This document shows, in pieces, positions 765-55,654 of a DNA stretch of 64,000 nt. A program made the translations under genes and the position numbers. The stretch is from Okamejei kenojei (taxonomy: Eukaryota), in contig CM069162.1 of the NCBI GenBank assembly GCA_035221665.1, positions 17,856,001 to 17,920,000 of the forward strand. Direction: 5' to 3'. Below the pieces are notes generated by a model. It saw only the letters and a program-made list of their open reading frames with translations, did no database searches and was not told the DNA's origin. Within the stretch, counting starts at the first letter, position 1; each line of letters opens with the position of its first letter.

Positions 765-858
765 TATGAAGAAACAAAGAAATGTAGATGCTGATTAAAA
801 CACAAAAGGACACAAAGTGCTGGAGTAATTCAGCGGGTCATGCAGCATCCCTGGAGGG
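765..858 (-). mobile_element. Hammerhead-core short element, left half (split by the Rex1 LINE)
   Basis: acacaaagtgctggagtaattcagcgggtcatgcagcatccctggag continues after the LINE at 2494-2533 (aatatggatagg...gagacccttcttcagac). Confidence 0.75.
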
Positions 859-2493: not shown

Positions 2494-2713
2494 AGAATAT
2501 GGATAGGTTTCGAGTCGAGACCCTTCTTCAGACCACTCTGGTGAAGCAGTATTAATCTAGTATGCCACCAACTTATACTTGCAATGCACTCAATTCTGAG
2601 TCCCTGATTTCAATTAGCCGTGAGCTGGCTGGTGAACACTAGGATTTTCTCACAGGAATTTTTGTTTTCATTTTAAAAAAAAGCTTGAACAGCAAGGTAC
2701 TGAGAATACTTAC

Positions 2714-4320: not shown

Positions 4321-4487
4321 CCTTATCTCTGCGTCTCCCTCTCCCTGACGCTCAGTCTGAGGAAGAGTCTCAACCCGAAACGTCACCCACTCCTTCTATC
4401 CAGAGATGCTGCCTGTCCTGCTGAGTTACTGCAGCATTTTGTGTCTATCTTCGGTGTAAACCAGCATCTGCAGTACCTTCCTACACA
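4321..4487 (+). mobile_element. Hammerhead-core short element
   Basis: cagtCTGAGGA-agagtctcaaccc-GAAACGTC-accc...gctgagttactgcagc...cagcatctgcagtaccttcctacaca. Confidence 0.8.
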
Positions 4488-7243: not shown

Positions 7244-8760
7244 ATGTCCTCTGGTCCTCGATTCACCTACTTCCCCACAGTGTACACACTGGAATGTAAA
7301 ACAAATGCAAGCTTGGTTAAACTGGAATACGAAACCCCCGTCCATTATCAAAATACTTGAAATCTTCTGAAACGGCAATCCTGTGCGGCAGACACGGCAA
7401 GTCAAATGGCTACCTTTCACTGGCATTAAATAACCAGTGGTGATTGGAGTTCATGATGGAACAATGACCACATGCATTATATGATGTAAAAATCATCGAC
7501 TTTGACATCCAGTAAATTAGATATTATCCGGTGTTTAGCTGATTATTTTGTACATTAAAATATTTGATTAGTGTTCTTTATCTTATCAATATGGGCGGTT
7601 AGAAGAGCAAAATTACCTTTAGGATGCAGAAATTGCGTTCTTAAATGTGAAAGTACTTAACTTTAATGCTTTCTGCTCCACAGCACAATCAGATAGAAAT
7701 GCCAGTATTAAATTTGACATGGTACCCAACATCCAATAGATTTTATATATTTTCCCCAAGGATGTTCAGGAAATGTACACACTCGCAGTTACACAAAGAT
7801 TCTTGCGACCCGACAAATGGTCCAAGCAAGGCAAAAAGATCCGGGCAACTCAATGACTAATTGGGAAGATTATGGGGGGGGGAAGTAAAATCAACCCACT
7901 CAGTAGCTAGTTCTAAATGATTTCTTACAACAGGTTAATCATTATATTACAGTACAAAATAATATTTGAACATAACAATCAGAACAGATAGCAGGATTTG
8001 CTTTAGGAAGTTGAATGAAGAAAGAAGCAGATAAAATCACCATGTTTTACAAGGATGACATGGTGTAGAGTCATGAAGAGGGAGTCTTCAGACACTTCAA
8101 CTAGGAAGCAAACAAATGATGGTCCTTAAGGTGCAACTTTGAGGCTTACTTCCTTCTTTTATATCATTTAATGAACTGCTTGGAAGTTTGGAGTGTGTTT
8201 TATTTTTGTTTACACAGACAAAACCACAAAATCTCTATAAGCAGGTCAACATATTCAGAATATGTTAAGAAAGCACTTACTAATTTTATATAACAGTTTA
8301 ATGGAAACTAAACAATCTTTAAATTGGATGGGAGATATGATCATCTTAAAATCAAATGGCATCAGTTCTGTCACGAGAACATGTTGCCTCAAGCTGCTCA
8401 ATGATACGTTGTACCTTGTACTATACCGAGAAAAAAGGTGCATTGCCATGATCTGGAAAGATTAGTTTAGTTCTAAGAAGTGGTCAAACCATCTCAGCCA
8501 TTTTCCTCAAAACACAAAAATTGGAAAATTACAGATATAATTCAACATGAAACAAATGCAGGATAAGCCAACTCAACTTTTCTTTGACCACAAGGAGAGA
8601 ATTAAGTCTGGCCCCTTGAACGAAAGCATCATAATGAAGCAATGCCAAAGAAATCCATGCAGTTGGAGATTTTGTACAATCACTAAATGGCAAAATAATC
8701 AGCATCTGACGGCACAGATATTTCTGGTCAGTTTCAAAAGAGCAAAGATTAGAGCAAAGT

Positions 8761-8856
8761 CTGAAGAAGGATCTCGACCCGAAACGTCGCCTATCTCCTT
8801 CGCTCCTTAGATGCTGCTGCACCCGCTGAGTTTCTCCAGCCTTTTGTGTACCTTCA
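8761..8856 (+). mobile_element. Hammerhead-core short element
   Basis: CTGAAGA-aggatctcgaccc-GAAACGTC-gcctatctcc...gctgagtttctccagc. Confidence 0.8.
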
Positions 8857-9527
8857 AAACAGCAAAGTTCAATTGTGTTGATCAAGTATGTTCACCATTA
8901 AACACCGACCTTGACAGAGCATTATTCTTTTACCTACCTGTAAAATTGAGCTTTTTTCCCCAGCATATTTTTTCCACTGATAAAGTTCCGTGCCAGAAAC
9001 ATCATGTGCCCTGCTAAACATGCTGATTTCTACATCCATTCTATCTGCATTAAGAAATCTTGTGGTAATTTAAAGACTCATACAGATACCTGACCAATCC
9101 CTCTTGCTTGTAGGATGTGCAGGCTGGATGAATAAGAACTGCGAGTTGGAAAGTGGAGATTGAGAAGAACAGAAAGTGTTCAAGGTTGCATGACAGAAAG
9201 TTAAGATTTGGTCAGAGAAATAATTAAGGTAAGCCCTTAACAAGTCTGAAATTCTTATTATGAACTGGCTTTGATTCAGTTAGGCTTTATTGAGACCTTG
9301 TGTTCATGCATTACTTCAATGAGGTTTCATTTAAGTGACTGAAAATCCACAATTTTATTGAACAGTAATAAAAAAACACCCTGGAACAGGATCAAAACTG
9401 CAAATCATAACCAGTTTGAAGCGTCGGTGATTCAAACATCATATAAAACACACATTCTTATGATGTTTGTCATAAGTATTTGTTTGGAATAGGTTCTCTG
9501 CGCTTGTGGCAAGTGAATCAAATAGGG

Positions 9528-10840: not shown

Positions 10841-12006
10841 TACTGAGGCTCCACACAATACTGTGTGTCAGAGAAACCACCTTGCAAATGAAGAACGCAG
10901 CAACACTACATTCTGAACCATCTGTTTACATGTCCTTGAACTGGCGAGAGTGTGGGTAATGGCTGCTGTCGGATATGACTACCTACCGAATTAGTTCGGC
11001 AATGTTATATCCAAATCTTAATGCCCTCATGGTATTGAGTGCTAACAAAATTTGTTGCTTTATTTGCATTATGTTTATTTATTTTCCCCCACTTAAATTT
11101 CATACATGCGAGTTTTATTCCTTGCCCCTGAGTTTTGGGCAATGATTTGCGAAATCCATAAGAGTGATCCTCCGTCATCTAAATAGCCATAATGCGGTGG
11201 TTGTCTTTAACAACTTTTAATAGGAGCTAATTGTTAAAATAACAATAAGCAATAAAGTTTATGGGAGTAAAAACCTCAACTCTGGTCAGAACTTTTGATA
11301 GAACAAACCAGCTCTTGTCTCGCCCTGGTGAAAGATCAATGTTTTATCCATGTTCCAAAAAGGAAACCAGATGTCTGTGTTGCTCTCGTGGTTTTATCAA
11401 CTGTAGACTAGATGTGGTCTGGAATCACTGCGCAACATGCCACAACAGTGCTCCACACAATAATTTGCAGCATACTTGCGACTTACCACATTTTCCACAT
11501 TAAATCCCAAATTACACCGCAAAGCTTTTCTGCAAAAGTTGGAAATGCGACATTTTTTGCACAATGCTTCAGAAGCGGGTTTAGATGCTCCGTTAATTGG
11601 AAGATTGTGAAAAAGACTAAAATGAGAAATACTCTTACATGCATGAATTATGCAAACTTCACTCATTCCTTTTATCCAGGGAGTTAAGTTCAACTCACAG
11701 CTGGTTTCAAATTGCAATTATCATTATGGAATTAAGACAGATGTTGGCAAACATGAAATTTGAAGAGTTGGAGACACATTATTTCTTCCAAAGCATATAA
11801 AAGTTAGACTCACATTTATAACTGGTTCACAAATATGCTTTAGGGAAAAAACTCAGCTGTCTTTACCCAGCTATGACTCCAGGCTGACAGCAATGTGACT
11901 GATTCTGCACTGCACTCCAAAATAGTCTAGCAGATTCAGTTCAGGATCAAGCATCAGGATAAGACAAACATCAACTGCTGCTGGCAAAGCAACAATTCGG
12001 TGAAAG

Positions 12007-12220
12007 ACACAAAATGCTGGAGCAACTCAGCGGTTCAGGCAGCATCTCTGCAAAGAAAGAATGGGTGGGGTTTTAGGTTGAGAAGGTCTGAAGAAGGGTC
12101 TCCACCCGAAACATCACCCATTCCTTCTATCCAGAGATGCTGCCTGTCCCGCTGAATTACTCCAGCATTTGGTGTCTATCATCGGTATAAACCGGCATCT
12201 GTAGTTCCTTCCTACATAAC
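12007..12220. mobile_element. Inverted dimer of the hammerhead-core element with TSD
   Basis: Left arm is the reverse complement of the right arm; direct repeat TCGGTGAAAG at 11997-12006 and 12221-12230. Confidence 0.8.
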
Positions 12221-12489
12221 TCGGTGAAAGGATCTCCAAAATCTGCCCTAAACTCCGGGCATTACTGGAAATATGCCGGACGTTTCAGTTTCAAATTGTT
12301 TCTTTGCAGATTTTGTTTATTTGACATGGTTCAGTTTTAGTTGCAACTCAAATTATTCCAGTTACTTAACATTAGCCTGACATCAGTTATCATTGATATG
12401 CAGCCAGTCGAGTAATAATCAATGGGGTTTTAATGTAGATCTATGGGCTTCCATTAGATGTCTTTCTCCTGAAGTGAGTAGAAAGCTTA

Positions 12490-19649: not shown

Positions 19650-20385
19650 TAGGGTCTCGACTGAAAATTCTTAGCAGTTCAAGCAGCATTTGTGGAAGCA
19701 ACCGAATAGTTGACTTTCCAGGTTGAGGGAAGATAGCCAATATAGAGCGGCGAGTTTGAGGAGTTAGGCAGGGGTGGCAGGAAATAGATGGAACCAGGTG
19801 AGGAAGGCGATGAGCAGATGAAGTTAGATGATGAAGGAATCACTGGCTGATGGGGTGAAAGGTAAGGACTCGGGAGACTCTGTCCCTGTTGTGATTGGGA
19901 GGAGGGGGAGCAAGAGCGGAGCTACTGGTTGCCGAGGAGACAAGTGTGAGGGCCTCATCTATCATAAAAGCTGGGAGCACTCCGAAGGGGTGGAGTAGAT
20001 GATAGTGGCTGGTAGGTAATAGGGAGAGCGATACGGAGAGGGAAACCAGGGAGCAGATGGAGTGAGGTGTGGGAGGGGAGGATGGAGATAAAGACGGAGG
20101 TTGGAAGGTGATAAGTGGAAACATAAGAGGCTGCAGATGCTAAAATTGCCAAAGAAGCAAGTGATAAGTGAAACCAGATGAGGACGGGATGATGGACAAA
20201 TGGACCCAGGTGGGGGTGGAGAATGAAACTGGATGACAGATGGGAGGAGCACAGAAAGAGAATATGGAGCACTGGAAGAGAGGGTCGCTGAAATAGGAAC
20301 ATTTGAGAGGTTATCGCCCTACACTGGCATGGGTAAGAGCTACTGTGTGGGAAGGAACTGCAGATGCTGGTTTAAATCAACTGAT
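19650..20385 (-). mobile_element. Decayed Penelope-like composite (ORF linker remnant and purine-rich terminal region)
   Basis: ORF 19840..20124 ends IDEALTLVSS...SALAPPPPNHNRDRVSRVLTFHPIS, resembling the RT-to-GIY-YIG linker (RVPLVLTFHP); flanked by fragments of the hammerhead-core element. Confidence 0.6.
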
Positions 20386-26700: not shown

Positions 26701-26826
26701 AGATCAGAAGGGTCCTGACCCGAAACGTCACCTATCCACGTTCTCCAGAGATGCCGCCTGACCCGCTGAGTTACTCCAGCATTGTGTGTCTATCGTTGGT
26801 ATAAACTAGCGTCTGTAGTTCCTTTT
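26701..26826 (+). mobile_element. Hammerhead-core short element (CTGA box lost)
   Basis: gaagggtcctgaccc-GAAACGTC-acctatcc...gctgagttactccagc...gcgtctgtagttcc. Confidence 0.75.
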
Positions 26827-28724
26827 TATTACAGTTGTTTTAGCCCTTGGATTTGCACATGCCTCTGATTGAGACAAACTTGATTTGTTTGACTCTGTTG
26901 CAGCTGACTGAAACCCCGCCTGATAAAAACTCAAATCAACAGGTAATTCAGACATCCTCATCCAATCAAAGCAAAAACCGCACAAGAAGGCAGACACTAA
27001 ATATCACGTTTTCTGAAACACAGAAGCAGCAAACTAGAGTTGATACTGCATTTTCTACATGCTTCACAAGTTTACAGAGTGTACCTCGCAGTTATTGAGC
27101 AGGCAGAAGAATGTCAGTTATGTACACACAGGTTCACACAAGGAGCATAATTATCTTGTCTCATAGATGGCCCCTCAGCTCCATCCAACCTAAACCCGCA
27201 TGAACATAAAAGAACCAGAAAGCAAAGTATAGACACTGGAAAACTGAAATAAAACAGAAAAGCTGGAAGTACTAAGTAAATTAGGCAAAATCTCAAGGAA
27301 AACAAAGTTAATCATTCAAATTGTTTTTTTTTAATCTGAATAATTCTGTTGAAAGGTCAGAACCTTTTGAGTACTATCCAGGAACTAAAATTTTGATTTT
27401 GATTTTTAAATAAATAATTATTGCATGCTATGGATAAGACTTAGCACAGCACTGCTTGCTCAAAGAAATTTAAAATAGGCCATGTATCTTTATTCACATA
27501 CATCTAAAGTTATTAGCAAACAGGCATGGCAGTAGCATCATTAAAAGTGCGGACATATTATTAGATGGGACTTTTGGATTTGTAAAGATTAAATAATTAA
27601 TTACCAATTACCAATTTTATTTTGATATATTCTGCTGAAAGCACATTCTCATGAGTGTGGCAGGAAAGTCAAATTAAACTAAAAACAAAAACAAAAAAAT
27701 CAGGAATAAACAAGTACCTTAACTCAAAGGTGGAATCCAAAATGCAACCCTTTAATTTCAGGATAATAATACTAACTTATCGGAAAAAATATGGATAGGT
27801 GTATAGCAAAAAAAAAAAATGCAGGCTTCTCCCATGCCTGAAGAAGGGGTTGGATTCCTAAAGAATATTTTGCCATTCGAAAATCTATACAGCAGTAATT
27901 GCAGTCAACCTTTAACTTCCGCCAAGGAATACCAATAGCTTTTGATGACAAAGTTGTTAGAAGCTCGTCAATCTCCTCCCAGTAAATATGCTGTAAATCA
28001 AAAGCAAACCAGGCTCTCAGTCTGAGAAGCTGAAAGATATGCATCAAAATGTTATTGGCAAATGGAATAGTGCAGATGGTCAAGAAAATGCCACCACCAC
28101 CAACACATTTTAAGAGCTTATATGTTTCGGAGACTCTTTAACATTCAGATAATCAAAAGTGCTGTTAAATGCAGAGATCCTCATGGATCTGTGCTTGAAA
28201 GATAGTCTCCAAATCTGTTCCCTCTGTTTTGTTGCAGACAACGATGACTTCATAAGACAACAAATTAAATTAAAACAAATCCCTTCTTTGTAGAGATTTG
28301 TAAAGTGAGTGTCTTCTGACTGGAGGAGACGTGTATGTGGAAAATTACAAAGTGACGGACATACAAACCACATTTGTGGGTTTTCATCGATCCCCAGAGC
28401 TAATAAATTAATTGGAGACATTTTAAAATTTGCACGGTTCTTGAATTGCTTTCTTATTGGTGTATTTAGTCTGGCTTCATAGACAGTGGCCGAGCATTCA
28501 ACAAAAGAAGGCTTCTTGCGTGAGTGGGCTCCATAAATAAACAAGAGATTTTTTACTGCTCCAACTTGGAAAAGTCCATATGTGTCAGGAACGAAACTAA
28601 AACACTGTTCATAAAAGGTCACTTTATTCACTGTTGCTCAAATGTGACTGCAATCTTGAAATGCTTCAATTTAAATTTCAGGGATTCAGAACCACTAAAG
28701 TAATCCCTAACCTTCTGTTTGCAG

Positions 28725-28990: not shown

Positions 28991-29082
28991 AAGAAGGGTC
29001 TCGACCTGAAACGTCACCCATTCCTTCTCTCCAGAGATGCTGCCTGTCCCCGCTGAGATACTCCAGCTTTTTGTGACTATCT
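28991..29082 (+). mobile_element. Hammerhead-core short element (5'-truncated)
   Basis: aagaagggtctcgacct-GAAACGTC-acccattccttctctccagagatgctgcc. Confidence 0.75.
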
Positions 29083-29718: not shown

Positions 29719-29985
29719 GTATCAGCTTGTATAACAGCACATAAACTGTGAAATGACTTCACCTGCATAAATACAGGACTGGGAAGGACAGATTCTCTAT
29801 GCAGAAGGGTCTGAAGAAGGGTCTCGACCCGAAACGTCGCCTATCTCCTTCGCTCCTTAGATGCTGCTGCACCCGCTGAGTTTCTCCAGCTTTTTGTGTA
29901 CCCTCGATTCTCCAGCATCTGCAGTTCCTTCTTTAAAAAATTCTCTATGCAGAATACAGCTGCTTCTTAATTGGAAACTATAATG
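29719..29985 (+). pseudogene. Decayed partial duplicate of the ANGPTL7 intron 3/exon 4 junction (pseudo-exon)
   Basis: gtatcagcttgtataa...atacAG|GACTGGGAAGGACAG matches the real junction from 30524; removing the insert gives DWEGQILYAEYSCF-LIGNYN. Confidence 0.85.
29807..29939 (+). mobile_element. Hammerhead-core short element with intact core and 15-bp TSD
   Basis: CTGAAGA-A-GGGTC-TC-GACCC-GAAAC-GTC at 29811-29838; TSD ATTCTCTATGCAGAA at 29792-29806 and 29940-29954. Confidence 0.88.
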
Positions 29986-30455
29986 AGTGGCACAGTGGTG
30001 CAACAGTAGAGTTGCTGCCTTAGAGAGTCTGGATTAGATTCTGACTATGGGTCTATCTTTGTAGATATAGAAACATAGAAAATAGATGCAGGAGTAGGCC
30101 AATCGGTCCTTCGAGTCAGCACCGCCATTCAATATGATCATGGCCGATCATCCAAAATCGGTAACCCGTTCTGGCTTTTTCCCCATATCCCTTGATTCCC
30201 TTAGCCTTAAGAGTTAAATCTAACTTTCTCTTGAAAACTAGATTGCACGTTCTCCCTGTGACCGTGTGGGTTTTCTCCATGTGCTCTGGTTTCCTCCCAC
30301 ATTCCAAACAGAAGCAGGTTTGTAGATTAATTGGTTTCTGTAAATTGCTCCTATCGTATAGGATGCCAATGTGGGATGACACAGAACCAGTGTCCGGGTG
30401 ATCAGTGAGCCCAAGGGCATGTTTCCACACTGTATCTCCAAACTTAACTAAACAA
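29986..30455 (+). mobile_element. V-SINE-like SINE interrupted by a minus-strand CR1 3' end (about 30067-30237)
   Basis: Head ggcacagtggtgcaacagtagagttgctgcc; CR1 tail tagaaacatagaaaatag; SINE core resumes at ttgcacgttctccctgtgaccgtgtggg. Confidence 0.8.
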
Positions 30456-30581
30456 GTATCTCTAAACCCAAGTATCTCTAAATGTGAACTTATATAATCA
30501 ATAATATTCGCTGGTGTGCTGGAGTATCAGTTTGTATAAACTGCAAATACATTGTCAAATGGCTTAATCTGTAAATTACAG

Positions 30582-32749: not shown

Positions 32750-33830
32750 CCCTAATTACTGTTTGCCAGCCTTCCTCTGCTCCTAGTGTTGAATAACACT
32801 GAGAAGAGCCAAGGGCACCTGATACTATCAAGAGCAGAGTACTCTGGGTGGGGAACTTCAATGTCCATCACCCATCAATAAGAATTACTTGGTAGCACCA
32901 TCATTATCAAGTCCCGAAAAACAGTTGCCACACTGGGTTTGCGACACAGCGAACAAACTAACACCAGGAAGGAACCTACATAACCGTACTTCATCAATCA
33001 ACATCTGTACACAAGAGCATTGGCAGGAGTAGCCATCAAACAGTCTTTGTGGAGACAAAGTCCCACCGTCACACCTTATATCCAGCAGCAACTTAAATGA
33101 ACATCACCTTAATCTATAACCTTACGGCCTCACTACATCATCATACATATTTTAATGAGAAGGCTAGGATGCCTTGGCAGTAGTAGAACTAGGTGCACCT
33201 TAAAATGCAGCATCAACCTAATGAAGTTGAAATACATGCATGCTACATAGCATGCCATAGTCACAAGCAAGCAGGCCAACAACCAACGGATCAGATCCAG
33301 GTTCTGTGGTCTTGCTGCATCTTGTTGTAAAAGTTGGTGGACAATTAAACAGCCAGCAGGAGATGACACCAAGAACATTCCCATCCCCATTTCCTTCGCT
33401 CCGCAGATGCTGCCGCACTCGCTGAGTTTCTCCAGCACTTTTGTCTACATTCCCATCCCCAATGCTGGGGTGACCTGCATTCGAGTACAAAAGACAAAGT
33501 TGAGGTAGTAGCATACATGTCCAGCCAGATGTGTCGAGTGGATGCTCCACCTGTGCTTCATTCCAAGATCTCCACTGCCATAGAAGCCAGTCTTTGGCTA
33601 ACTTGAGTCACACCAAGTGGTACCAATAATGGTTGAGGCCATTGTCCCCTGCAAAGGCTGTGAGACCAGACAATATCCCAGTTGTATTATTGATGTCCTC
33701 TACAACTAGGGAATTACCCATCTCTTGCCAAAACCATTCCATTACGGGCACAAAGGGAGCATTTTCCTGACATGTGGAAACATGCTTTTCACAAATAGCA
33801 TGGAAATAGCTTCTTGTTTTCATCCAGCAA
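32750..33830 (+). mobile_element. Highly degenerate LINE ORF2 remnant (APE to RT)
   Basis: ctctgggtgggg(g)aacttcaatgtccatcac resembles LWVGDFNVHH; gcaaaggctgtgagaccagacaatatccca resembles KAxGPDNIP. Confidence 0.55.
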
Positions 33831-33864: not shown

Positions 33865-34078
33865 TACTTTTTTGCATATCTTTTATTCATTGTTCTTTAT
33901 CACTTTACATCGTCGCCTATATCTCTCGTTTCCCATATCCCAAACCAGTCTGAAGAAGGGTCTCAACCCAAAACGTCACCCATTCCTTCTCTCCAGAGAT
34001 GTTGCCTGCCCCGCTAAGTTACTCCAGCTATTTGATCTATCTTTGGTTTAAACCAGCATCTGCACTTCCTTCCTACAC
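33865..34078 (+). mobile_element. Hammerhead-core short element with pyrimidine-rich 5' extension
   Basis: ccagtCTGAAGA-agggtctcaaccc-AAAACGTC-acccattcc...cagcatctgcacttccttcctacac. Confidence 0.8.
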
Positions 34079-34227
34079 AAAAAAAAAAAAAATCTGGCTA
34101 ATTACTGCCCAATCAATGTAATCTTCATCAAGCACGAGACAGGAAAAGTGCAATATTTTCTTGAAGACACGAGTAACTACTCAACTCTTGAACAAAGCAC
34201 AAAGTGCTGGAGCAAGTTAGCGAGTAA

Positions 34228-34522
34228 AGGGCCTGTCCCACAATGCAAGTTCACGCAAGAGCTCTCCCGAGTTTAAAAAAAAATCTAACTCGTGGTACCT
34301 CGTCATGAGTATTTATTTACTCTTGGAAATTTTTCACAATTGAAAAAACTTCACGAGTTTCCGCGTTTCCCGAGTACCAGCCGCTAGCATTACGAGCCGC
34401 TACGAGACATCAACGAGCTCCGACGTACCCGCTACGTACATTCTATGTAATTACCACGAGTTTGATTTTTTTTTTAAACTCGGGAGAGCTCTTGGGTGAA
34501 CTCACATCGTGGGACAGGCCCT
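34228..34522. mobile_element. PIF/Harbinger MITE inserted in a minus-strand hammerhead-core element (about 34190-34590)
   Basis: TIRs AGGGCCTGTCCCAC / GTGGGACAGGCCCT with long internal inverted arms (aagagctctcccgagtttaaaaaaaa / ttttttttaaactcgggagagctctt); flanks TAA/TCA. Confidence 0.88.
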
Positions 34523-37214
34523 TCAGTCAACACACAGTATGTGGAGGGAATGGACAGGTGATGTTTCGGGTCAGGACCTTTCTTCAGACCAAAGATCCTA
34601 TAGGATCTTTGCTTCAGACTGCAGGTTCTGAGATTTGCAGCAGGAAAATGGTAGGGAAGGTTTTGATATTGAGGAGATGAAGGCAGGTATAAAGCTTTTA
34701 ACTGAGAGCATGGTAATATTAAATCAAACTTTAATTAAGCAAAAAGTCAGGCCCCCAGTGATGACGAGTTTTAGTTAAAAAGACCAGTGGACTGCAGCAC
34801 AACAAAAAAGTCCAAGGGAGTCAAGGGGGCTTGAGAAAGAATCAGACACACAAAATGCTGAAGTAACTCAGTGGTAAAGAATAAGTTGGATCATGAGGTC
34901 GTTTAGAAAAATGTGACGACTGGGATAAGGTATAAGAAGATAATGTTACAATGTGTTGGAAGTTTCAAGAGCATGATGTCACTCACAATTTATAGCATGA
35001 GGTGAAGCTGAATTCTCTCCTTCAAGGGAATTGTTAATTCAAGTTCCAAGTGGAAGAACTAAAAGCAGCAAGCACGTTTAAGCAGGAACTCTTTCTGTAA
35101 ATAAATTGAATGAAAATGTTGGCCACTTTAGGCTAATTTCATGTAACTTCAAGTAAATATCGGTATTCTTTAAATTCATATCAATCAAGAGCATCTGTAT
35201 ATTATAGGGAGCAAGGGCTATCTTGCTCCCAAGCAGTATGAAGACATTTTTCAAAGTCCATCTTCAGAGTTTCATTGACCGTTATATTGAACAGTCCTAC
35301 AAAGCTAATTTATTTCTCATTATCTCATTATCCATTTCTGACAGAGCCATCGCCTAACACATTATCTTTTTTTTGTGAGGATACTGATAATCTTGCCATG
35401 TATTTTCAGCAATGGCTATCTGGGTAGAAAGTCATATAATTTCACAACATAATGCACATTCAATGCAAGTCTCTTGGCAACATCTGTTTTAGCTGTGTGA
35501 GCACAGATCTGAAAATAAATCATTGTTTTTTTTTAAAATAGAGAAACTTATACATCTATAGTAACACATAAAACAAAATCTGCTGCAGCTCTTAGCTTCA
35601 TCATTGCATGCATTCTCCCTTTGTTAAGTAATGGAACGAGAAACAGAAAACTTTTCTTGCCAAGAAATGAAAGAAGAGATACTGGGAATGATGATGATGG
35701 TCTACTTATAATGCATTGCAATTTATAACACAGAACTTTTTTGGTAGGGCTTTAAATTTGGAATGGCATCATGAAATTGTTCAGAATTAACTTGATGGAG
35801 AGTGAAATCACCACTCTGCCTAGGTATGGGGTAGTCCACAACAGTAATGACAAAGAACAATTTAGATGTATTATTGCCTTTATTATATTACTTAAGGCGT
35901 GTCATCCCTGGAGAATTTTCATAATACATATATCCTCAATAAGTCATTGAGACAATCAACACTGCCACTACTTGGAGAATCCTCGCCCCCATTTGTTTTA
36001 CTGTAACATGCTCACTACTAACTACCTAGATTCGTCCACCAGTCTCCTCACAGTAACAGAATAACATGACAACCAGCACCTATTTGGGATGTGTCTATGA
36101 TGTGTCCCCCAGAAGAGGGGGAAGTAATGTGATCACGGGAAAACATACAAATTCTACACAGAAATCACCAAGAACTAAGAGGCACATGCACAACCTCTGG
36201 TACCACAGTGTCAGTCTATAATATACAGACTACTACAAAGAAATCTAAATCCACCACATACCAAGAAAAAGGGCAAGTTTATCCTTTGGTGTCTTAACAT
36301 TAGTTTAGCCCACTATATTGCCTTGTATTGGATGAATGTTTATTGTCGGGGTATTTCAGGTTTGAAACAAGAGCACAAAAAACAGAATATAAAAGTGGTT
36401 CAAAAAAGTGTTTTTAAGTTACAAAGTTCTTTATAAATAAATAAAAACATATTTGATAATTGCCAATAAATAAAATTGTAAGCAGCTAACGCAGATTATT
36501 ATGCTGAGTTCGAAATGAGATTAACTGAACAATTTTCATGCAGTGAACTACCAATTCGCAATAAAGTACACCAGCCAAATTTCAAATACCAGTCAACCAG
36601 CTAACACAGTGGAAGTCTTTAATCATGAAGGTTTCAAAGGGCATTCAAAGGATATAGAGTGCATGACTGAGAGCAAAATTTGATTACTTATGGATTTAAA
36701 TTATTTCCAAAATAAACAAAATGAGAACCTGCAGCATGTTACACAGGTTTACTTGAAAGGCGAGTCAAGTGTGTGACTGAAACGTACTTCAACGTTAATG
36801 CATTAGGAGTGCTGCAATGCTGCTGGTGCTTGAGGGCTTCAGAGCTCTGGCTAAATTAATAATATCTTCTGCACATTTGATTCAGATATAGACATTAAAT
36901 CCCAATAATATCAAACAGCACATCAAATTCAAAAGCTGCCATGCAGTTTTTGGTCACAATTGTATACACAAACTGTACTCGTGGAAACTAGAAGTGAATG
37001 AAAGCTTTGTCAAGACGTCTTAAGGAAGGGCTAGTTATGGTGGCCATTCACCGGTTCAGATTGCAGGCTACCCTCCCAAGCCAATTATATGCCCCCCTCC
37101 CAAGGTTATGCTCATGCTCGGGTATTCTTGATAAGGAAACACAGAGTGCTCATTGGTAAACATTCTGGGACCAGAGGCAGTATAACTGAGATGGCAAGGA
37201 CAATGTTTTAATTT

Positions 37215-37460
37215 GTAGGAAGGAACTGCAGGTGCTGGTTCATACCGTAGACGATAAACAAAATGCTAGAGTAACTCAGCGGGACAGGCAACATCTTTGG
37301 AGAGAAGGAATGGCTGAAATTTCAGGTCGAGACCCTTCTTCAGACTGAAAGTCATGAGGGAGTCGAGCGATATGGAAAGGTAAGATGTGAAAATGACAGA
37401 TCAAAGCAGACGATTATAAGGCTATGTAGAATGGTTAATTGTTAGGGGAAGGTGACAAAT
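37215..37460 (-). mobile_element. Hammerhead-core short element
   Basis: gtaggaaggaactgcaggtgctgg...gagtaactcagcggg...ggtcgagacccttcttcagactg. Confidence 0.8.
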
Positions 37461-39701
37461 TAATGTAAATGTTTGTTTGTTTTAAGTTGTAAATAAAGTT
37501 ATTTTATTATAGAAAGGAAATATGCAACAAATATCACAATTTCAAGTGGTGCAAAGGAACAAAGGCTGCTTAGTGTGTTTGTTCATAGGTTCTTAGAGGA
37601 CAGATTAATAAGATGGTTAAAAATGATGGCTTTCTTCATAGGCATGGAGTAAGAGAAGGGAACTGTATAAAATACCACTTTGACTTGCCAATTGCATACA
37701 ACCCTGGTCATATTTCAGAAACCTGGGGAGTGAGGGAAGGAGGGTGCTGCAAGGATCACAAATTAATAGCTCCAAGGAAATACAGGGTAAACTGGAGTTG
37801 TTTCCTTTGGAATCAAGGCATCCGAGGGGTTACTTAATTCAGGAGCATGAAATTCTGATAGAGTATGTAGGATGGACCCAGACACAGATTTGTAGAAGTT
37901 GTTCGTTTAGACATTAAAGAGACACCCTCAGGACATTTAAACCATACTTTGACGTGTACTTAATAAGCCACTATTTGTAGAGTTGTAGATTTTATGCTGG
38001 ATGGTGGGATTAGACTTGGTAGTTCTTGAAGCAGTACAGAGATGACGTGCTGTGAAGCCTCCGTATGTGTAATTATTTTTTGGCAATTCCATTATATCTC
38101 ATCAATGACAAATAGTTTCCTTCGCTAAATTCTGAATACTCACAAACAGAAATTTAAGACGCATTTCACAGCCACTCTCTAGTTACGCACTTATATGTCT
38201 TACACCAGATCTCTGCAATACCTTCTCCTTCATCACCTTAAAAACTAATAAAATTAACAAATTAAAGGCCAGTTTTAGTTGCATAATCTGTACCATTAAT
38301 GGAATATAATGTGGAAAAAGTCAGAGAAAAATAATTATGAATACATCTAGCAGAAATATCATTGCGTGAGCACCCGAATCTCCAGCATGCATACTTTGCA
38401 AATCTGCAATACTAATAAAGTTAGTTGCCCAACGTGCAAATCGTTAACCACCATCGTTGAATCAACCTGCTGGTAGAATTGACTTTAATTAATACAACCC
38501 CTAAGAAAAACAAAGTTAAATCTTTAGGATGTTCGATTGCGTTTCATTTGAAAAAATGGAAATTAGACATTGCTCATCACAAGCTATCTCCCATTTTCAA
38601 CGAGCTTTAATGGGGGAAAGCTATTCTCTCCCTTTCATAAGAAAACATTAAGTTACTTTATTTTTACCTAGAATAAATAAAATAATTAAAACTCATATTA
38701 ATAGTTTCCTACTGACCTTTCAATGAGATTTATTTAGATCTCTAAACTTGAGGAGAATTCTTCAAAGATACCAAAATGAAAACTAAACTATGCAACATAT
38801 TTCAAACAATGTACTTTTAAATACTTTGAGAGTGGAGACATTTTCCAAATGTAAGTGCATAATTCTCAAGAGAGAAAGAAAGGTTTGAAATCTGGTTAAT
38901 ATAAATGTAATGTAAAGACAACATGTTCTGCTTTTAAAATCATCATTTTACCTAGCTGCTTTTTTAAGTATCTGTTTTGACAATGAATATATTTTACTCA
39001 GTTCACATTTTCAGTTTAGATGTAGAAATTCAGTTTGTAGATTTAAATACGGAACACTTCTAAGGCAATGCTATAATTAACTAGCTCCACTTTGACTAAA
39101 GGTATACTGCCCTTAACATGGAATCGACAGCATGTAATGGCAAACCAGCGGGGAGTGGAAACAATACTGTACAACCTCATTGTGGGCGATATTCTATTGA
39201 ATAAAGTTTACAGTATTGCTCTGGGTTGCCATTATATACTGTCAATTTTGCAGAGGACAATACCAATTATGTGCCTCAAGCAAATCAAATGTTAAGGTTG
39301 CAAATTTCAAATATGCATGCTTTTTAAACTGCATCCTCAATAATTACAACCTGGAATCTTTAAACTGTATCCGATTCTCCCCTCTTCAATATGTGCAACA
39401 TGGAGACTTTACTTGAGGAGGAGTGCTGGAAATTGGATACGAGTGGGCTACAATATAGGCTGTATTGCATTCATCTCCCGTCTCCTGTCAGTAATAACCA
39501 CTCCATTGACTCCAGATGGGCTGGATATCAAAAGCCAAATGCAGATTTACATTTTTATTTTCTCCAGGTCCTCTGTGGTAGGCCAGTTCATCTTCCAAAC
39601 CACAAAGATGTTAATCATAATTATCTTTCCGACTAACTGCTGCAAACAAAACCAGAGTACAGTAACATGTGTGGCATTTTAAACAAAGCAGCTCTACCTA
39701 C

Positions 39702-39847: not shown

Positions 39848-41476
39848 CTGATGAAAATGAAGAAGTTAGCCAGCTTGCCAAGATTAAGAAATTGATTTGT
39901 TCTTATTATCCTAGTACAGATTTACAATTAGGCAGCAAACAAAAAATAGTAGGAAATAACAGGTTTTTGGGGGGATGCTAGAATGCAAGCAGAAGGAACC
40001 TGCAAGAATCAGAGGTTATGCCACAACTTATTTTTAATATACATCAATGACAAATGAGGGGCTGTATGGAATGTATCCAATCTGATACAAAGCTAAGAGA
40101 AAGGCAAGCTGAGAAACAAGACAGAAGCTGTAAAGGAATTATAGACTTCCTTAGCAGAAAGATTTTAGTAGAAAGAAATTATGACATTGGTAATGAGTCA
40201 GAAAACATTTTTTTGCCAATCTTACCATATTGCAGTATATTAAGAAGCCAAGTACAGCAAGCAGCAATGACATCAAAAGGCACACCAAGCTTCACTGTAA
40301 GTGGATTGGGAGTATAAAAATAAGGAAGCCTCTGGAGCTTTGGTGAGATTTTCCCTCGAGTGCCAGAGGCTGTTTTGATTTCCTACTTGCCCAAAAGGGC
40401 ATGTAACAAAAGTGCACTTGAATAGGTTAATAGGAGAGCCCATGATTAGAGAAGGAATATAACGTGCCTATATCTACCAGAATTTTGAAAACTGAGATGC
40501 ATACATAAAGAAATTATTAGATCCTGAGAGGGCAAAAGCACAGATGCTATTTCCCTGGCTCGACTGACTGGAATGAGGGATTATGGCTTCAGGATGAGGT
40601 CAGCAATTTAGAAGGGAAGGGAGAAATTACTTCAGTCAAAGTGTGCAAGATCTTGATTGAAAACATGTATGCTTGATCGTAATCATATCGTCATTTCTTT
40701 GACTGGATACCATGCAACAAAAAAAGCTTGTTACTCTACCTTGATACACATGACAATAATAACATTAAACCTTAAAGATAGAATAGAAACATAGAAAACA
40801 GATGCAGGAGTAGGCCATTCGGCATTTCAAGTACCCCGTTCCTACTTTCTCCCCATATCCCTTGATTCCGTTAGCCCTAAGAGCTATCCAACCTCCAAGG
40901 AATGTGAGCATTCAATGCGCATTTTCACCAAGGGAATCGAGGCATTGGGAGATGGACTAAGAAAATAGTGCTATAAAAGTTCTGTAACAATCATACTGTC
41001 AATAATAAAACAATAATAAAACTAACTAAACCTTAAAGATATCCCACCTCTGAGCAATGTGAGCATTCAATGAGCATTTTCACAAAGGGAATCAAGGCAT
41101 TTGGATAAAGGCAAGGAAAACAGTGTTGTAAAAGATCTGCTATAAACTTACTGAGTAGTGGACAGGCCTTAAGATTCTCCATGCTCTACTAGCTGCGCCA
41201 CTGCTCTGCCTGTATTTTGCTAAGCGTGGACATTTATAGAATTTGATAAGAGACAAGCTTTCCTTTGAAAGTGAAATAAAACCGACAGATTCTGGAAATT
41301 TGACATAAAACAAAAATAGCTGCAAACACTGCAGGCATGCAGCATCTGTGAAAAAAAGGAAACAGAAATGACATTTCATGTCTGAGAATTTTATCTTTGC
41401 TTCTCTTTCTGTGGATGCTGTTGGACCTGCAGAGAGTTTCCAGCATTTTCTGTTTTTGATTTGGCTTCTCCTTTAC

Positions 41477-41639: not shown

Positions 41640-43206
41640 CTGTATTACAAGAAAGTACAAAACGTTAACATGTAGTGAGAAAAATAAATGATATGCCTGT
41701 TTAGATGAAAATATTTGTTCACTATAACTAAAAAATGAAAAATTAAAAATGTAGTTTTATTCAAGCACATTTTTTACTTATGCTTACAGGAGACGGCCAT
41801 TTAACTCATTGGGTCCATTCCAGTTCCAAGAGTAGTAATCCCTTTGGTCCCATTAACGTTATCCCTATTTCCTTGTATCCTTCCAAATTTATTTATGACT
41901 AATTTATTTCCCTCTTACTGTGGGCACTCTGTGGACTGATTACTCTCCAAAGTGGCAATTTTCCCAGTGCAAGCCTAGACAGAGACCGTTAACTGTTCAT
42001 TCAACGATGGATGGCAGTGTCAAAACCAGATCGGACCCAGATTTTTCATTGTGGCTTGGAAACCTTGGCATTTCTTCACCGAAAATATATAATTGCCTTC
42101 CCAGACTGAACCTCCAACCCTATACTAGCTCATTTTGGCTTAAAAGCAAACATCAGTGCATAAAAATTAGCCAAATTACCTCAGGTTCAAAAGCAATAGG
42201 GTTCCACATTGCTGTTTAATGTTATTGCCTTGTACGAGGTAAAAAAAAGTACGGCTTCTGAAAAAATTATATTCTCTCATTGTTGGCAGACTAATTTGCA
42301 AAGGTTACTACTTAGAATATTCCAGAGCAAAGCTCTTCAATAGAATAATCACCTATCTAATTCATATGCATAACCCATTTTGCAATTACAACCTCATGAG
42401 TTATTTGTTGTCATGCAATTGCAAAGAAAGGATTATTTGGAATAATATGAAATTTGGAAAATTAATCATCAGTAAATCTATATAAATGTACAGTATTGTT
42501 GAAAACAAGTTGCTGTATAGTCATTTTATATGACCTTATCAGTTGTCATAACCACATATTTATTCTAAATATCTTTTAAAATATATCTTATCCACAATGA
42601 GAATCTGCAAAGTAGAATTTCTATCTAAAACACTCCTTTCATTGGTGATTGCTCACAATTTTTTTCTTTTTATTCTTATTTTAGCCAACGTATTTAATTT
42701 GCTCTTTCAGCACTAGGATATTTGCATGGTATTACTTTCATGGTTTTCACAAGGATGTCGACACTGGGGATTCTAATAATACCACTGTGCGTCAAGTGGC
42801 AGCAACCCAAGTCAGCCTAGGGTAAAAGATTTGAAGGAAATAAAATTGATTCCTAACGAAATCTGAAAATTATAGTCAGCAGATCACGCAGCTTCAGTGG
42901 AAAGAGAAATAAAGGGATTTTGACTTGAAATGTTAACTCTGTTCCCTTTCCACAAATATTGTCTGAACTGTTAATATTTTGGGCATTTTGTTTCTATTTC
43001 AGATTTCCAACATCTGCAGTTTTTACATTTTCAAATTAGCTCCACAGTTGATGTTTCTTTTCAAATATAGGAAACTCTCGAATTAAGAAATGAAAATACG
43101 TGAAGCGAGGGAATTTATGAAATTATTTCTGCATCATTTTGGACACAAGAATATAAGTGCAAGAGGAACCCACTCAACCCATCAAACCTGCCCTGCCATT
43201 TTGTAT

Positions 43207-43402
43207 AAGAAAGAACTGCAGATGTTGGAACAATCGAAGGTAGACAAAACTGCTGGAGAAACTCAGCGGGTGTGGCAGCATCTATGGAGAGAGGAAATAG
43301 GCGACGTTTCGGGACTGAAGGGTCTCGACCCGAAACGTCGCCTATTCCTTCTCTCCACAGATGCTGCCTCACCCACTGAGTTTCTCCAGCATTTTTTGTC
43401 TA
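43207..43402. mobile_element. Inverted dimer of the hammerhead-core element with 15-bp TSD
   Basis: Arms aataggcgacgtttcggg / cccgaaacgtcgcctatt; TSD CCTGCCATTTTGTAT at 43192-43206 and 43403-43417. Confidence 0.88.
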
Positions 43403-43454
43403 CCTGCCATTTTGTATGATCATGTCTGATCTCCACCATGCTATATATATAGAT

Positions 43455-49149: not shown

Positions 49150-49600
49150 TTTTAATTATCTCCCACCACCCCAGTCACCCTGACCCATTCCCCTTCTCCA
49201 TCCGTTCATCTTATGCCCTTTCCATATCAGACTATGACCATTTTCCTTACATCCCCCCCTTTCTCTGTCCCCTTTCACCGATCTCTCGCCCTCCGACTTT
49301 ACATTTCACCCCTATTCCTATCTACGACCCTTTGTCTCCTTTTCACCTCTAGCCTTTGTTATCATCTCCATCCATCTGCCAACCACTCGTCAGTTGTGTA
49401 CCCTCCTGTCACTTGCCAGGCTTTGCCCAATCCCACATCGCTTTTCCAGCGTTCTTTCCCTCACTCCATTCATCTGAAGAAGGACCCCCAACCAGAAACA
49501 AATCTTTCTGTTCCCACCACAGATGCTGCTTGACCGCTGAGTTTCTCCTGCACTTGTTTTTGCTCAAGATTCCCACATCAGTCGACTCCTGTGTCTTTTT
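49150..49600 (+). mobile_element. Older Penelope-like terminal region with decayed hammerhead core
   Basis: Long pyrimidine-rich tract, then CTGAAGAAGG...GAAAC...agatgctgcttgaccgctgagtttctcc. Confidence 0.6.
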
Positions 49601-51002
49601 TTCCCTCTCAAAATGTTTTCACAAATATGCACAGGAGATTGAATGGTGCCTGGAGAACAGCAAGGGAGGGTGCTCCAGTGTTCTGCCCAATATTTTACGC
49701 TCAAACAACAGTACGAACATTTTGCACTAAGAACTATCGATTCCCTCTCCCCTGACCCTCAGTCTAAAATGTCACCAATTCCATTTCTCCAGAGATTCTG
49801 CCTGACCCGCTGATTTTCTCCAGCATCTATCTGAGGAATATCATACTGTTTATTATCACTTTGCTCTTGCAAGCCAGTGATGTGCACATGTTGGCTGGTG
49901 TATTTCCTGCATTACCACAGGAATAGATCTTCAAAGGGCTGATATTAACTGCAAAATTCATTGGGGATTGCTGATGACAATAAGCAGCCAAATAAATATC
50001 CTTGACACATTTTCCAAGGTTAGGGAGCTCTCCTCCCAGTATCATATTAAAAAATACCTCTTGTTCACCACTCGCAAACCTACTAACTGATCAAAAAACT
50101 TTATTATGTGCAAATTGACAGCTGCATTTTCATAATTTACAGTACTGTGCACTTCAAAAGCCCTTCATCAGCAGTATACTTTAGGGTAACCCAGTGTCTC
50201 GAAAGGTATTACAAAAATACAAGACTTTCTTCTTTTTCTTCCGCATATTAGAAGCGAATGTGTAAGCAACTGATAATTTGGTTTAACCACGATGAAATTA
50301 GAATCACAGAAACTTTAGGAAAGAGAAGGCCATCCTGCCCTTGTGTTTCTCCTTGAAGAAAATGCCAACTTCCAGCAAGAGGCCTGTATGAATTTTTCCT
50401 TAATAATTATACTTTTCTTGTCTCCATTTCACCCTCTCCAGCACAATCATCTCGTTCACATTATATGCCGATAAGGACTGTATGCCAAACTTGAGCAATG
50501 ATTCAATGAAAACTCTATTTTTGAAAGATTGGAGCACACATTCATGTCATTAAAAATAAATCAGAAGTCCCGACTGCAGCTTTCTTTCGAAGTAATGTTT
50601 TACGGGCATATTCTATGTAAATGAATGCCACCTAAAAGTCACCTGGGGCTTTAAATTTATAAAATTTATAACCCATGTCAAATAAAATAACAGTTAACGA
50701 GTACATTCATGGTGGAGGAAATTCCTACTAAATGGAAGGTTACAATTTTAAGCGTCATTTAAATTCATTATATGTATAAAAAAACTGTCCAGGGAAATGG
50801 ATTGAGCTTGCAGTTTTATTCTGCCTCGGCACATTTTATTGAAAATGTTCTGGAGTTCCTCCAGTAAACTGCTTTAGGTGCAGGCATAATCATTCTAGTT
50901 GTATATAAATACAGCAGCCAGTTTATACAAAGGTCCTTCTGACAGTAAGAAAATTAAGATGATTTTTTTTAAAGTCTTGACTTGAGAAAAGTTAGTCAAA
51001 AC

Positions 51003-52587: not shown

Positions 52588-53508
52588 TACTCTCCTATCA
52601 TGGATGTTCAGGTTACTGGTCCATCGTACTCCAAGTTTTTCATCACAGCCCTTCTTAAATAGAGGTACAACATTAGCCATTCTGCACTCTTCCAGCTATT
52701 CATCCATTTCTTATGATGATTCAACATCTCAGCTAGAGCTCTTGTAATTTCTTCTCTAATTTCTCACGGTGTGTCCTTGGTTATCCCTGATCAGAACTGG
52801 GAGATTTATCTGCCATTATAAGATTTAGAATATTCAGCACCTCCACAGCTGTAATACAGACTGTCCTCTAAGTAATAGTACATCCCCATTTACTTTCCCA
52901 AGTTCTTTTGTCTTTATGTCTTTAACTGTGGCCAAAGTAGAGGGGAAGTATTCATCGAAGACCTTGCCCATCTCCTGCACCTCCACACATAGATGAGATC
53001 ACGTTGGTTGGTTTCCGGGGGGGGGGGGGCTTTATGTTTCGTGTGTTGTGCCTGTGATGCTGAAGATTTTCCCTGAACCTGTACCTCACTGTACTTGTGC
53101 ATATGGTAATATATTTGGAAGGTAGACACAAAATGCTGGAGTTATTCAGTGGGTGAGGCAGCATCTCTGGAGAGAAGAAATGAGCGACGTTTACAAGTCT
53201 ACACTAAAACATAATTTACTGTGGACCATTCATCTTCCAGCATGTTTTTGGGATGCGGGATGAACTCAATGCACCCAGCCAAAACCTGTGCGGTATTGGG
53301 GGAAACTTCACACACAAAATAACCAAAGTCAGGACAAACCCAGCCCCCCGCAGCTGTGAGGCAACAGCATACCCCCCGTCTGTCATTCATGGCGTGGGTC
53401 TAGGCAGCCAACTAAAGCCATAAGCTGCTTTACATTGTGATTTTCCAATCAGTTGCACATTGATGTACCAACACTCAGAGAATGAGAGATCAATCAACAA
53501 TTTACAGG

Positions 53509-53688
53509 TGTAAGAAAGAACCTCATGCTTGAAAAAATGGAAGGTAGACATAAAATGCTGGAGAAACTCAGCGGGTGAGGCAGCATCTATGGAGAGAAGG
53601 AATGGGTGACGTTTCGGGTCGAGACCTTTCTTCAGAATGATTTACAGATAATTTACAGGAGCTATAAATTTATGAGACTCTTCTTCAG
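53509..53688 (-). mobile_element. Hammerhead-core short element with 12-bp TSD
   Basis: Minus-strand core CTGAAGA-A-AGGTC-TC-GACCC-GAAAC-GTC at 53608-53635; TSD ACAATTTACAGG at 53497-53508 and 53689-53700. Confidence 0.82.
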
Positions 53689-54206
53689 ACAATTTACAGG
53701 AACTGGATCAGTCCCGTGGCTCATTCCTTAAAAGCTAGTCTAAATATATTGCCATATATTAACTGCAATATTTTCAATTTATCACAAGCATCACCATGTA
53801 CCTTGATAGCCCCTGAACAGAAAAATGGAAAAGATAATGCAAGCCAAATGGAAGATTGCTTCATTGTTTCCATTCACGCTCAGTTCTCGACATGGATATA
53901 AAAGTTACCAATGGATCTCACACAGCTTTTGGCATCCAGAATTGAGGTATTCCCAAATGCAATAAAATAGATTCTAGAAATTGAGAAATAAAGCACCACA
54001 GATGCTGGAAGTCTAAACAAAAGTGAAAAAAACTGCATAATTAACAGTTGAGGTAATACCTAGGAGGAAAAAAATGATTTTAACTTTTCAGGTGATGACT
54101 ATTCATCATCTGGAAAAGTGTGGAAATAGTACATTTTAAGTTGCAGAGCATGGGAGAGGGAAGAGTATGATTTTGATGGGGTGGAAACCATCCTGCACAG
54201 GAGACA

Positions 54207-54435
54207 TGTGTAGGAAGGAACTGTAGATGCTGATTTACACTGAAGATAGACTAAAATGCTGGAGTAACTCAGCAGGTCATGCAGCATCTCTGGGGAGAAG
54301 GAATGGGTGACGTTTCAGGTCGACCGCTCCTCAGACCTTCTGAAGAAGGTTCTCAATCCAAAACGTCACCCATCCCTTCTCTCCAGGGATGCTGCTTGCC
54401 CTGCTGAGTTACTCCAGCAATTTGTGTCTTACCTT
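54207..54435. mobile_element. Inverted dimer of the hammerhead-core element with 14-bp TSD
   Basis: gctggagtaactcagc...gggtgacgtttc / aaacgtcacc...gctgagttactccagc; TSD CTGCACAGGAGACA at 54193-54206 and 54436-54449. Confidence 0.85.
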
Positions 54436-55654
54436 CTGCACAGGAGACAATTGCTTTGAGCAATTGAATGCTTGTTGTCTACAGCTAACCTGTCTGGAGG
54501 AGTGTGAACAAAGGAAAATGAAGGGGGATAGTGGTGAAAAATACCTGCTGGAGATGTGATGCAGAACACTACATTTGGTGAAATTAGAATGGACTGGATA
54601 TAATCTCCCAGTCAGAAACAGAGCAAAAATCTACGAATCTCTTAATTTTCTGTGTTTTCAACACCATGCACCCACTCTCACCAGCCCAACCATAAAACCA
54701 ATATTCACAATGAAAAAACTCAATCAAACAAACTCAAGATCATACACCATCCTCTGTAACAAAGGTGCCTAATTTTAGTTTTCATTCAACATTTAAGTTC
54801 TATAAACAATTAGAAGATTTTTTACCGCACATTTCTATTTAGTCTTATGCACCACAGAAATGGTCACTTCAGCCCATTTTTGTCCATTACACAAATCCCC
54901 ATACCCGTGCCAGTATTAGTAGTTTCTTTCTGTCTTGCCTATGTAATTACCCATTTTTAATGCCTCTTAAACATGGATATATTTTTTGATCCCACAAACC
55001 TCCCTAGTAGCACATTCCAGATGTCAGCCACTCACCATGTAAACAAAAAGCTTACCGCTAAAAGTTCCTAGCCCTCACCTTTAATCTGTGCCCTCCGCTA
55101 GGATTATAATAGTCTATTTTAATTTGTTTTAAATTTCCAGATTGTTCCCATTTTCTTGTCAGAAGATCAGGTCAACAGGGAAGTCTTTTTCTGACTATCA
55201 GAGTACCCCAAACAGTAATCTGATGAAAAGATTCAAAAACCACAGTAAGTTTTGATCAAGCAGGCAGAAACAAAAAAAACCCTACAGGGTGCCGAGGTAG
55301 CTAACCACAAAGACCACCACCATTTAAAGAAAAAAAAAATCATAATTTAAGAACCAACAATTTGTTGTTGCTTTGTGGTGAGTTAGGGCACGCTCAATTA
55401 GAAACAGAACATGTAATTGTTATTTTACATTAATTTATCAGTTGAAAAGAAAAATGCAAAAGATTACAGGATCAAATGGCTGTCTCCATGAAGTGTACCA
55501 TGGGTGCAATAAGTTGACTAGTAAGTCTGTGGGCTTTAAGCATGTTATTTTACTGTTATGTGTTTAGCATTATAAATTAATTACTTTTAGCTGACCACCA
55601 TGAGAAATCTTCTAATTGCTTATAGTACTTAAATGTTGAATGAAAACTAAATGA

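Follow-up and report, generated by a model that had tools for sequence, protein, structure and literature searches.

The short repeats dispersed through the 64-kb stretch of elasmobranch DNA analysed here (the window) are probably the 3' ends of several EN+ Penelope-like element (PLE) subfamilies, each consisting of a pseudo-LTR (pLTR) that bears a minimal hammerhead, with or without a tail. The Penelope-derived origin proposed in the initial annotation is favoured by the match of the hammerhead to the PLE consensus and by PLE insertion signatures, namely two 3' ends, inverted pairs within one TSD and an optional tail. Formal membership of the family among PLEs awaits an RT/GIY-YIG ORF. The motif itself is known biology, and in the literature searched (which lay outside subscription journals, Dfam and Repbase) we found no paper devoted to an elasmobranch family that carries it; the family may already be catalogued.

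The repeat family is genuine. The core pattern, with up to three mismatches allowed, has 10 matches in the window and none in 100 shuffles, and an nhmmer profile built from 11 copies finds 35 matches at E<=10, against three weak ones in the reversed window. Defined by the 28 nhmmer matches at E<1e-3, the family occupies 2745 bp, or 4.3% of the window. The shuffle, reversed-window and TSD controls all favour a real short repeat in many copies, as first described, and a copy lies within a few bases of each of the 12 positions then listed; the estimate of about 15 copies was too low, as there are 22 arms from younger subfamilies and 8 older ones. Tallies given below refer to 21 arms: three matches with E>0.09 and eight old diverged arms are excluded, two copies split by later insertions are merged, and one aborted 16-nt piece is set aside. 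Most copies are decayed, and the alignment indicates that decay after insertion fell mainly at CpG, with 33 of 143 cells in those columns departing from the majority. Two scans of a bacterial and archaeal genome collection for stray family copies gave 0 and 0 matches.

Table 1. Features of the repeat family in the window (starts are counted from C3 of the hammerhead core)
Feature	Position	Strand	Remarks
Focal copy: left TSD, exact, 15 bp	29792..29806	+	direct repeat with 29940..29954
Focal copy: minimal type I hammerhead	29807..29842	+	matches consensus of Fig. S3, PMC4209133
Helix I 5' strand, GGGT	29807-29810	+	
CTGAAGA	29811-29817	+	
Extra A	29818	+	
Helix II, GGGT/CTCG/ACCC	29819-29830	+	4 bp, 4-nt loop CUCG
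GAA	29831-29833	+	
Palindromic ACGT	29834-29837	+	
C17, predicted cleavage position	29838	+	
Helix I 3' strand, GCCT	29839-29842	+	pairs U.G, G-C, G-C, G.U
Focal copy: body to short 3' end of tail-less copies	29843..29902	+	contains AGATGCTG and small hairpin
Focal copy: optional 3' extension of about 35 nt (PLE 'tail')	29903..29939	+	contains CAGCATCT
Focal copy: right TSD	29940..29954	+	
Inverted pair 1	11994..12230	.	13-bp TSD, 1 mismatch; + arm tailed, start -3; - arm tail-less
Inverted pair 2	43192..43417	.	15-bp TSD; - arm tailed, + arm tail-less
Inverted pair 3	54193..54449	.	14-bp TSD; - arm tailed (-3), + arm tail-less (-1)
Tailed copy, 134 nt 5' of core	37204..37490	-	14-bp TSD, 1 mismatch; null 1/150 draws at <=1 mismatch
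Tailed copy, pyrimidine-rich 5' extension to CAG-T before core	4290..4486	+	TSD not found
Tailed copy, homologous pyrimidine-rich 5' extension	33885..34080	+	TSD not found
Tail-less copy, start -2	8733..8867	+	15-bp TSD (1 mismatch), 11-nt target-like filler at 5' junction
Tail-less copy, start just past predicted cleavage site, sole such copy	33375..33461	+	15-bp TSD
Tailed copy, 12-bp TSD	53497..53700	-	complex 5' junction: aborted 16-nt element piece, target-derived repeats
Tailed copy split by LINE	772..2534 (pieces 2496-2534, 772-859)	-	start -3
Copy split by inverted-repeat element	34190..34590	-	start -3
Tailed copy, different subfamily	26706..26829	+	loop II CCUG
Tail-less copy	28991..29082	+	
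Tail-less, 5'-truncated copy	53117..53192	-	
Copy with short 5' extension, deletion in hammerhead	49740..49826	+	
Older copy after about 320 nt of pyrimidine-rich sequence	49156..49570	+	boundary approximate
Old decayed region	19664..20381	-	tail-only piece, pyrimidine-rich DNA, coding-like remnant, decayed family match
Tail-only copy, about 35-40 nt	20343-20381	-	in old decayed region
Decayed family match	19664-19727	-	in old decayed region
Older diverged probable head-to-head pair	41285..41453	.	no recognisable TSD
Similar older probable head-to-head pair	42876-43026	.	

The hammerhead assignment rests chiefly on comparison with known PLE motifs. All 11 core positions, the extra A, the G10.1-C11.1 pair and the palindrome agree with the PLE minimal-hammerhead consensus shown in Fig. 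S3 of PMC4209133, in line with the minimal type I core recognised initially; the match was scored for the focal copy and for the family majority, and the motif is fully intact in copy 29811 alone. A strict scan for core plus helix II passes four loci, one of which (29811) retains ACGU-C. Indexing the letters of the focal copy confirms the cleavage coordinate that had been given, 29838, and the helix I described for this copy does have 4 bp, two of them G.U; helix II, drawn before as 5 bp with a 2-nt loop, cannot fold that way and has 4 bp with a 4-nt loop. Helix I is shorter, at 1-3 bp, in the remaining nine of the 10 scorable copies. Thousands of minimal hammerheads in PLE ends are on record from fish, coelacanth and frog, and the parts of PMC4209133 that describe them give a helix I of 2-3 bp, an extra base after A9 and, commonly, ACGU-C. 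The window family shares with these motifs CUGANGA plus an extra nucleotide, a helix II closed by G-C, GAAA, ACGU, NUH and a helix I of 2-4 bp, as well as the occurrence mostly as single dispersed motifs, there ascribed to truncated PLEs, with some close pairs on opposite strands. It differs in that the 56 motifs of Fig. S3 include none from cartilaginous fish, and in being very dense and known here without a linked ORF.

The core is also better kept within the family than the sequence downstream of it. Outside CpG, 5 of 159 core cells deviate from the majority versus 132 of 953 downstream (p 4e-5, for rows that are not independent and from which flank letters were removed by hand in seven late-starting and two early-ending cases). 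The segment AGATGCTG, which in the focal copy (29859-66) is complementary to CAGCATCT (29913-20), is kept about as well as the core, with 7 of 144 cells deviating. Also kept in all subfamilies, downstream of the hammerhead, is a run of pyrimidines with YAG and ATG after it (29859-29861 and equivalents), which could be a second splice acceptor, an ORF start or merely part of an outer helix.

The covariation check suggested initially for helices I and II gave no signal above shuffles among 20 closely related copies, a set with little power (190/500 and 417/500 shuffles were equally high), and RNAalifold predicted 0 pairs on the family alignment. Rfam models, run on the whole window and on the focal 221 bp, returned neither a hammerhead nor a tRNA match; the one MIR1507 match in the window is inverted pair 2. 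The focal copy folds no better than its shuffles (z -0.65), and the best of eight sequences folded, the 12085 copy, reaches z -1.83. A possible 6-bp stem joins the core to the inner hairpin (29819-29885 and other copies), at a level borderline against shuffles. In a 40-nt piece the hammerhead fold lies within 0.5 kcal/mol of the MFE, and in the full focal copy it lies 3.3 kcal/mol above it, with a helix I probability of about 0.001. An active dimer is without folding support, since the dimeric hammerhead as modelled, at -15.9 kcal/mol, lies well above the dimer MFE (-27.7). Judged by its sequence, the family motif is a hammerhead by descent, and by analogy with what is reported for PLE minimal hammerheads any self-cleavage is likely to be weak.

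The 3' ends fall into two classes about 35 nt apart, at +124 to +130 in five TSD-defined arms and at +88 to +96 in five others (counted from C3), so that on the tail side copies stop at one of two set points, next to the TSD. Variation lies on the hammerhead side, where starts range from -134 in a TSD-bounded copy to pieces consisting of the tail only, and two copies have target-derived fillers at the 5' junction. The three young head-to-head inverted pairs, which also rank first to third among the inverted repeats of the window, each lie within one TSD of 13-15 bp and each combine one tailed with one tail-less arm; chance alone would give such mixed arms in all three pairs with a probability of 1/8. 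The predicted cleavage site is present in six of the six arms of these pairs. TSDs had been claimed for several copies, and we find an exact one of 15 bp at the focal copy, where the longest repeat among 2000 random 133-nt segments is 10 bp, and others of 12-15 bp elsewhere; a relaxed search over 13 arms yielded one credible TSD. Four copies carry homologous pyrimidine-rich 5' extensions, whose scores are attained by 0 of 100 shuffles, in a comparison of upstream sequence that also let through one spurious match, between 37343 and 34587. Similarity of the 320 nt upstream at 49.2 kb to the region at 19.7-20.3 kb is not significant (score 66; shuffles mean 54, maximum 78). The initial annotation mentioned neither the head-to-head pairs nor the copies extended 5', nor that there are two 3' ends.

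These junctions are informative about the reaction. Since the hammerhead side is variable and shows fillers and inversions, the strand in hammerhead sense is the template RNA; and because both arms of each inverted pair retain the cleavage site, that template was uncleaved. The TSDs show insertion at staggered cuts of 12-15 bp. The 5' junctions at 53497-53700 (-) and 8733-8760 (+) contain target-derived sequence more than once, along with a fragment of an aborted element, and suggest repeated template jumps as cDNA synthesis ends.

Close parallels exist among PLEs studied elsewhere. According to the sections of Frangieh 2024 (PMC11167929) on the reaction, the anole PLE takes uncleaved RNA as its substrate, cuts both strands and extends each, and its tail sits between two internal start sites of reverse transcription. 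Poseidon_Ac of Anolis is like the window family in having two fixed ends some 90-130 nt downstream of the hammerhead and an uncleaved template, and unlike it in that the Poseidon_Ac ORF starts in helix II (PMC11167929), where the window family yielded no assignable ORF start. An optional tail of 30-40 bp is described for PLEs in PMC8557442 and PMC3846280, and PMC3846280 describes for rotifer Pen2a inverted pairs with one tailed and one tail-less arm in one TSD. More broadly, the Penelope, Poseidon and Neptune inserts presented in these two papers share the inverted 5'-truncated arm, the tail on one arm, the TSD around the whole insert and microhomology junctions, whereas the window arms measure only 90-130 nt with no ORF between them and their TSDs are 12-15 bp compared with 8-10 bp in the rotifer (PMC3846280, PMC8557442). 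By extension from the anole PLE, the PLE protein would nick both strands, reverse transcription would begin inside the RNA at one or other of the two tail boundaries, head-to-head pairs would arise where both nicks serve as primers, and early termination of the cDNA would leave most copies as dead stubs of 90-270 bp. The hammerhead would be retained in the master elements and might cleave only as an ACGU:ACGU dimer or with help from protein, and its cleavage would not be what frees these copies.

A full element with RT and GIY-YIG was not found within the 64-kb window. A coding-like remnant of 41 aa at 19843-19965 (-), in the old decayed region, may resemble the PLE RT-EN linker. It had no match in the protein database, its representatives, Pfam or the Atlas, and one in the PDB at E 0.59; comparison with material from the Craig 2021 supplement (PMC8557442) likewise gave no relevant match. 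A six-frame motif scan of the window for PLE RT/GIY-YIG found nothing else convincing, and a Pfam scan took in seven chosen ORFs. No partial tandem that would place direct pLTRs around an ORF occurs in the window, an absence expected of short truncated copies. In copy 4357 one frame is open across the entire element (window 4180-4566, +); a single 172-aa database protein, without RT, contains the element and terminates in that frame, and by this likeness the element is read into spurious ORFs.

One point of the family is unexplained, namely a cluster of 5' ends just before the core. Starts 1-4 nt ahead of C3 are found in 8 of the 21 arms and in 6 of the 11 with defined junctions, for which P < 2e-4 under uniform truncation, corrected for the choice of counting window; this value is optimistic because real truncation favours short copies. 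Extended copies read CAG-T-CTGA at this point, and short-start copies have 0-3 G's ahead of the T. A G at -3 is present in 5 of 8 short-start and 0 of 4 extended copies, a difference that is not significant (p 0.08), and where present it gives a helix I of 3-4 bp in four copies versus 1-2 bp in the extended ones. In a tree built without the pre-core letters, which holds the six short-start copies of sufficient length and is otherwise without resolution (1 of 14 branches starred), a single clade for the short-start copies is rejected (p-AU 0.003), so the start recurs across subfamilies. No such cluster at the hammerhead is mentioned for Poseidon_Ac in the relevant sections of PMC11167929.

Of the readings of this cluster we tentatively prefer one in which the PLE transcript itself starts at -4 to -1 and the cDNA runs off to the cap, with 0-3 added G's. 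RTs add extra bases at caps, and internal priming at a 5' copy of the tail would yield a short run-off cDNA that ends at the capped transcript end. Several short masters are a possible source, though on the unlikely side; a splice junction at CAG|T, our second option, we consider unlikely, and chance or ascertainment quite improbable. As to a promoter or intron in the pLTR, only acceptor-like or initiator-like sequence was found before the core, and the short copies have no shared first exon or donor site. The pLTR of Drosophila virilis Penelope is similar in its pyrimidine tract plus AG just 5' of the core, as far as PMC2377424 and PMC4209133 detail it; its intron ends at 491 with C3 at 496, compared with a CAG that ends 1 nt before C3 in the window family, and it differs from the short copies, which lack the donor site and shared first exon (PMC2377424). 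We also considered whether the 5' GG could stem from CCA added to an antisense RNA, and rejected this because that side is the variable end.

The run-off reading can be carried further, into a joint proposal that we regard as doubtful: that most copies are strong-stop products and that the hammerhead is an RNA-RNA pairing signal and not mainly a nuclease. Acting on its own capped mRNA, the PLE polymerase would prime inside the 5' pLTR, extend 90-130 nt to the cap and add C's, and ribozyme-bearing stubs would thereby be seeded through the genome. The palindromic hammerhead would load two uncleaved RNAs onto a dimeric PLE protein, and priming of one RNA per tail boundary and per nick would produce head-to-head inserts with tailed and tail-less arms. 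If true, this would give a function to PLE hammerheads, whose role has so far been an open question, and the junctions in a shark or ray genome would be numerous enough for a purely computational test. Literature outside subscription journals contained no paper that we could find devoted to a strong-stop or RNA-pairing model.

Other origins for the family as a whole have to be weighed against the truncated PLE ends preferred here. One or more short non-autonomous families mobilised by a PLE (SINE-like solo pLTRs with a slightly lengthened helix I, beginning just ahead of the core) would account for the cluster of starts, for the helix I lengthened by the G at -3 and for the fact that the young copies all lack an attached ORF, and non-autonomous PLE derivatives figure in parts of PMC8557442 and bioRxiv 10.64898/2026.07.22.740005. 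The letters at -4 to -2 vary, however, and the short-start copies lie in different subfamilies, mixed with extended copies of the same subfamily. The non-autonomous family advanced initially is thus improbable, and 5'-truncated PLE ends fit better because the copies reach different upstream lengths and the short-start ones are not one clade. The label 'retrozyme-like' has fared worse. A non-LTR retrozyme, whose RNA cleaves itself, forms circles and is reverse-transcribed by a rolling-circle mechanism, would share the type I hammerhead, the non-coding sequence, the kinship to PLE pLTRs (Cervera 2020, PMC7229834; Li 2026, bioRxiv 10.64898/2026.07.22.740005) and the long TSDs; monomers exist, and one chondrichthyan genome is among those to which the preprint attributes retrozymes. 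But retrozymes as outlined in these two sources are tandem repeats of 150-450 bp that yield circular RNA, whereas the window family is dispersed and head-to-head, and none of the nine TRF rows of the window is a head-to-tail array. The retrozyme hammerhead is canonical by the 2020 definition (PMC7229834), with a helix I of about 6 bp and loop contacts, and the one here is minimal, with 1-4 bp. Only 1 of the 21 arms starts near the cleavage site, the template was uncleaved, and the full copy disfavours the hammerhead fold by the margin given above, so a retrozyme is very improbable.

We give as little weight to two readings in which the hammerhead likeness is an accident. A tRNA-derived SINE on the opposite strand is suggested by 11-mers that resemble an A box and a B box on the minus strand, at a distance of 41-42 nt (29819-29885 and other copies), the best copies having three mismatches over both boxes, a borderline result equalled by 27 of 1000 shuffles. 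This test was post hoc, 0 of 14 copies have fewer than three mismatches, the B-like box is the reverse complement of helix II, and the sense strand has no A or B boxes. ARAGORN and Rfam gave no tRNA match, in agreement with the initial remark that a tRNA head is absent. The polarity is also wrong, as truncation and fillers would fall on the supposedly fixed 3' end, and such a SINE is hardly credible. For the 3' end of a LINE or other retroelement it may be said that 5' truncation and TSDs are generic, and that covariation and an Rfam match are lacking. Against it stand the agreement with the PLE consensus, the scarcity of poly(A) or microsatellite ends, from which most copies are free, and the overlapping inverted arms with an optional tail, which are PLE-specific; DIRS-type elements, as treated in PMC8969392, are without TSDs, unlike this family. 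This origin too seems highly unlikely.

The family is of value as a natural data set on PLE insertion. Because its inserts are very short and bounded by TSDs, both ends of the PLE reaction can be read from them, including two-armed inserts and the sharp 5' end found at the ribozyme, and junction statistics make second-strand priming, the origin of inverted pLTRs and the role of the hammerhead testable.

Several neighbouring features were noted in the course of the analysis. The target site of the focal copy is included in an 87-nt local direct repeat, 81% identical (29719-29805 and 30524-30610), and a LINE/SINE-like repeat lies between its two copies at 29985-30400. The LINE inside the family copy at 772..2534 (795-2500, +) is 5'-truncated, has an ORF with RVT_1 and one stop, and shows at its 5' junction a short perfect palindrome of target origin; the inverted-repeat (MITE-like) element within the copy at 34190..34590 has 62-nt arms and spans 34222-34528. 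LINE 3'-end fragments, which we take to be CR1-like, occur at 6800-7262 (-), 30060-30240 and 60540-61242 (-) and gave no Pfam match. The first coding exon of ANGPTL7, a gene that we assume sits in an MTOR intron, is at 21886-22410 (+), and the part at 22021-22401 compares with ANGPTL7 of the ray Narcine bancroftii at 81%, of sharks at 76-78%, of chimaera at 69% and of coelacanth at 61%, a ranking with a ray at its head that marks the window as elasmobranch; the ORF at 41234-41644 (-) presumably resembles an MTOR exon. Finally, a near-perfect palindrome of 52 nt without spacer is located at 61442-61493.
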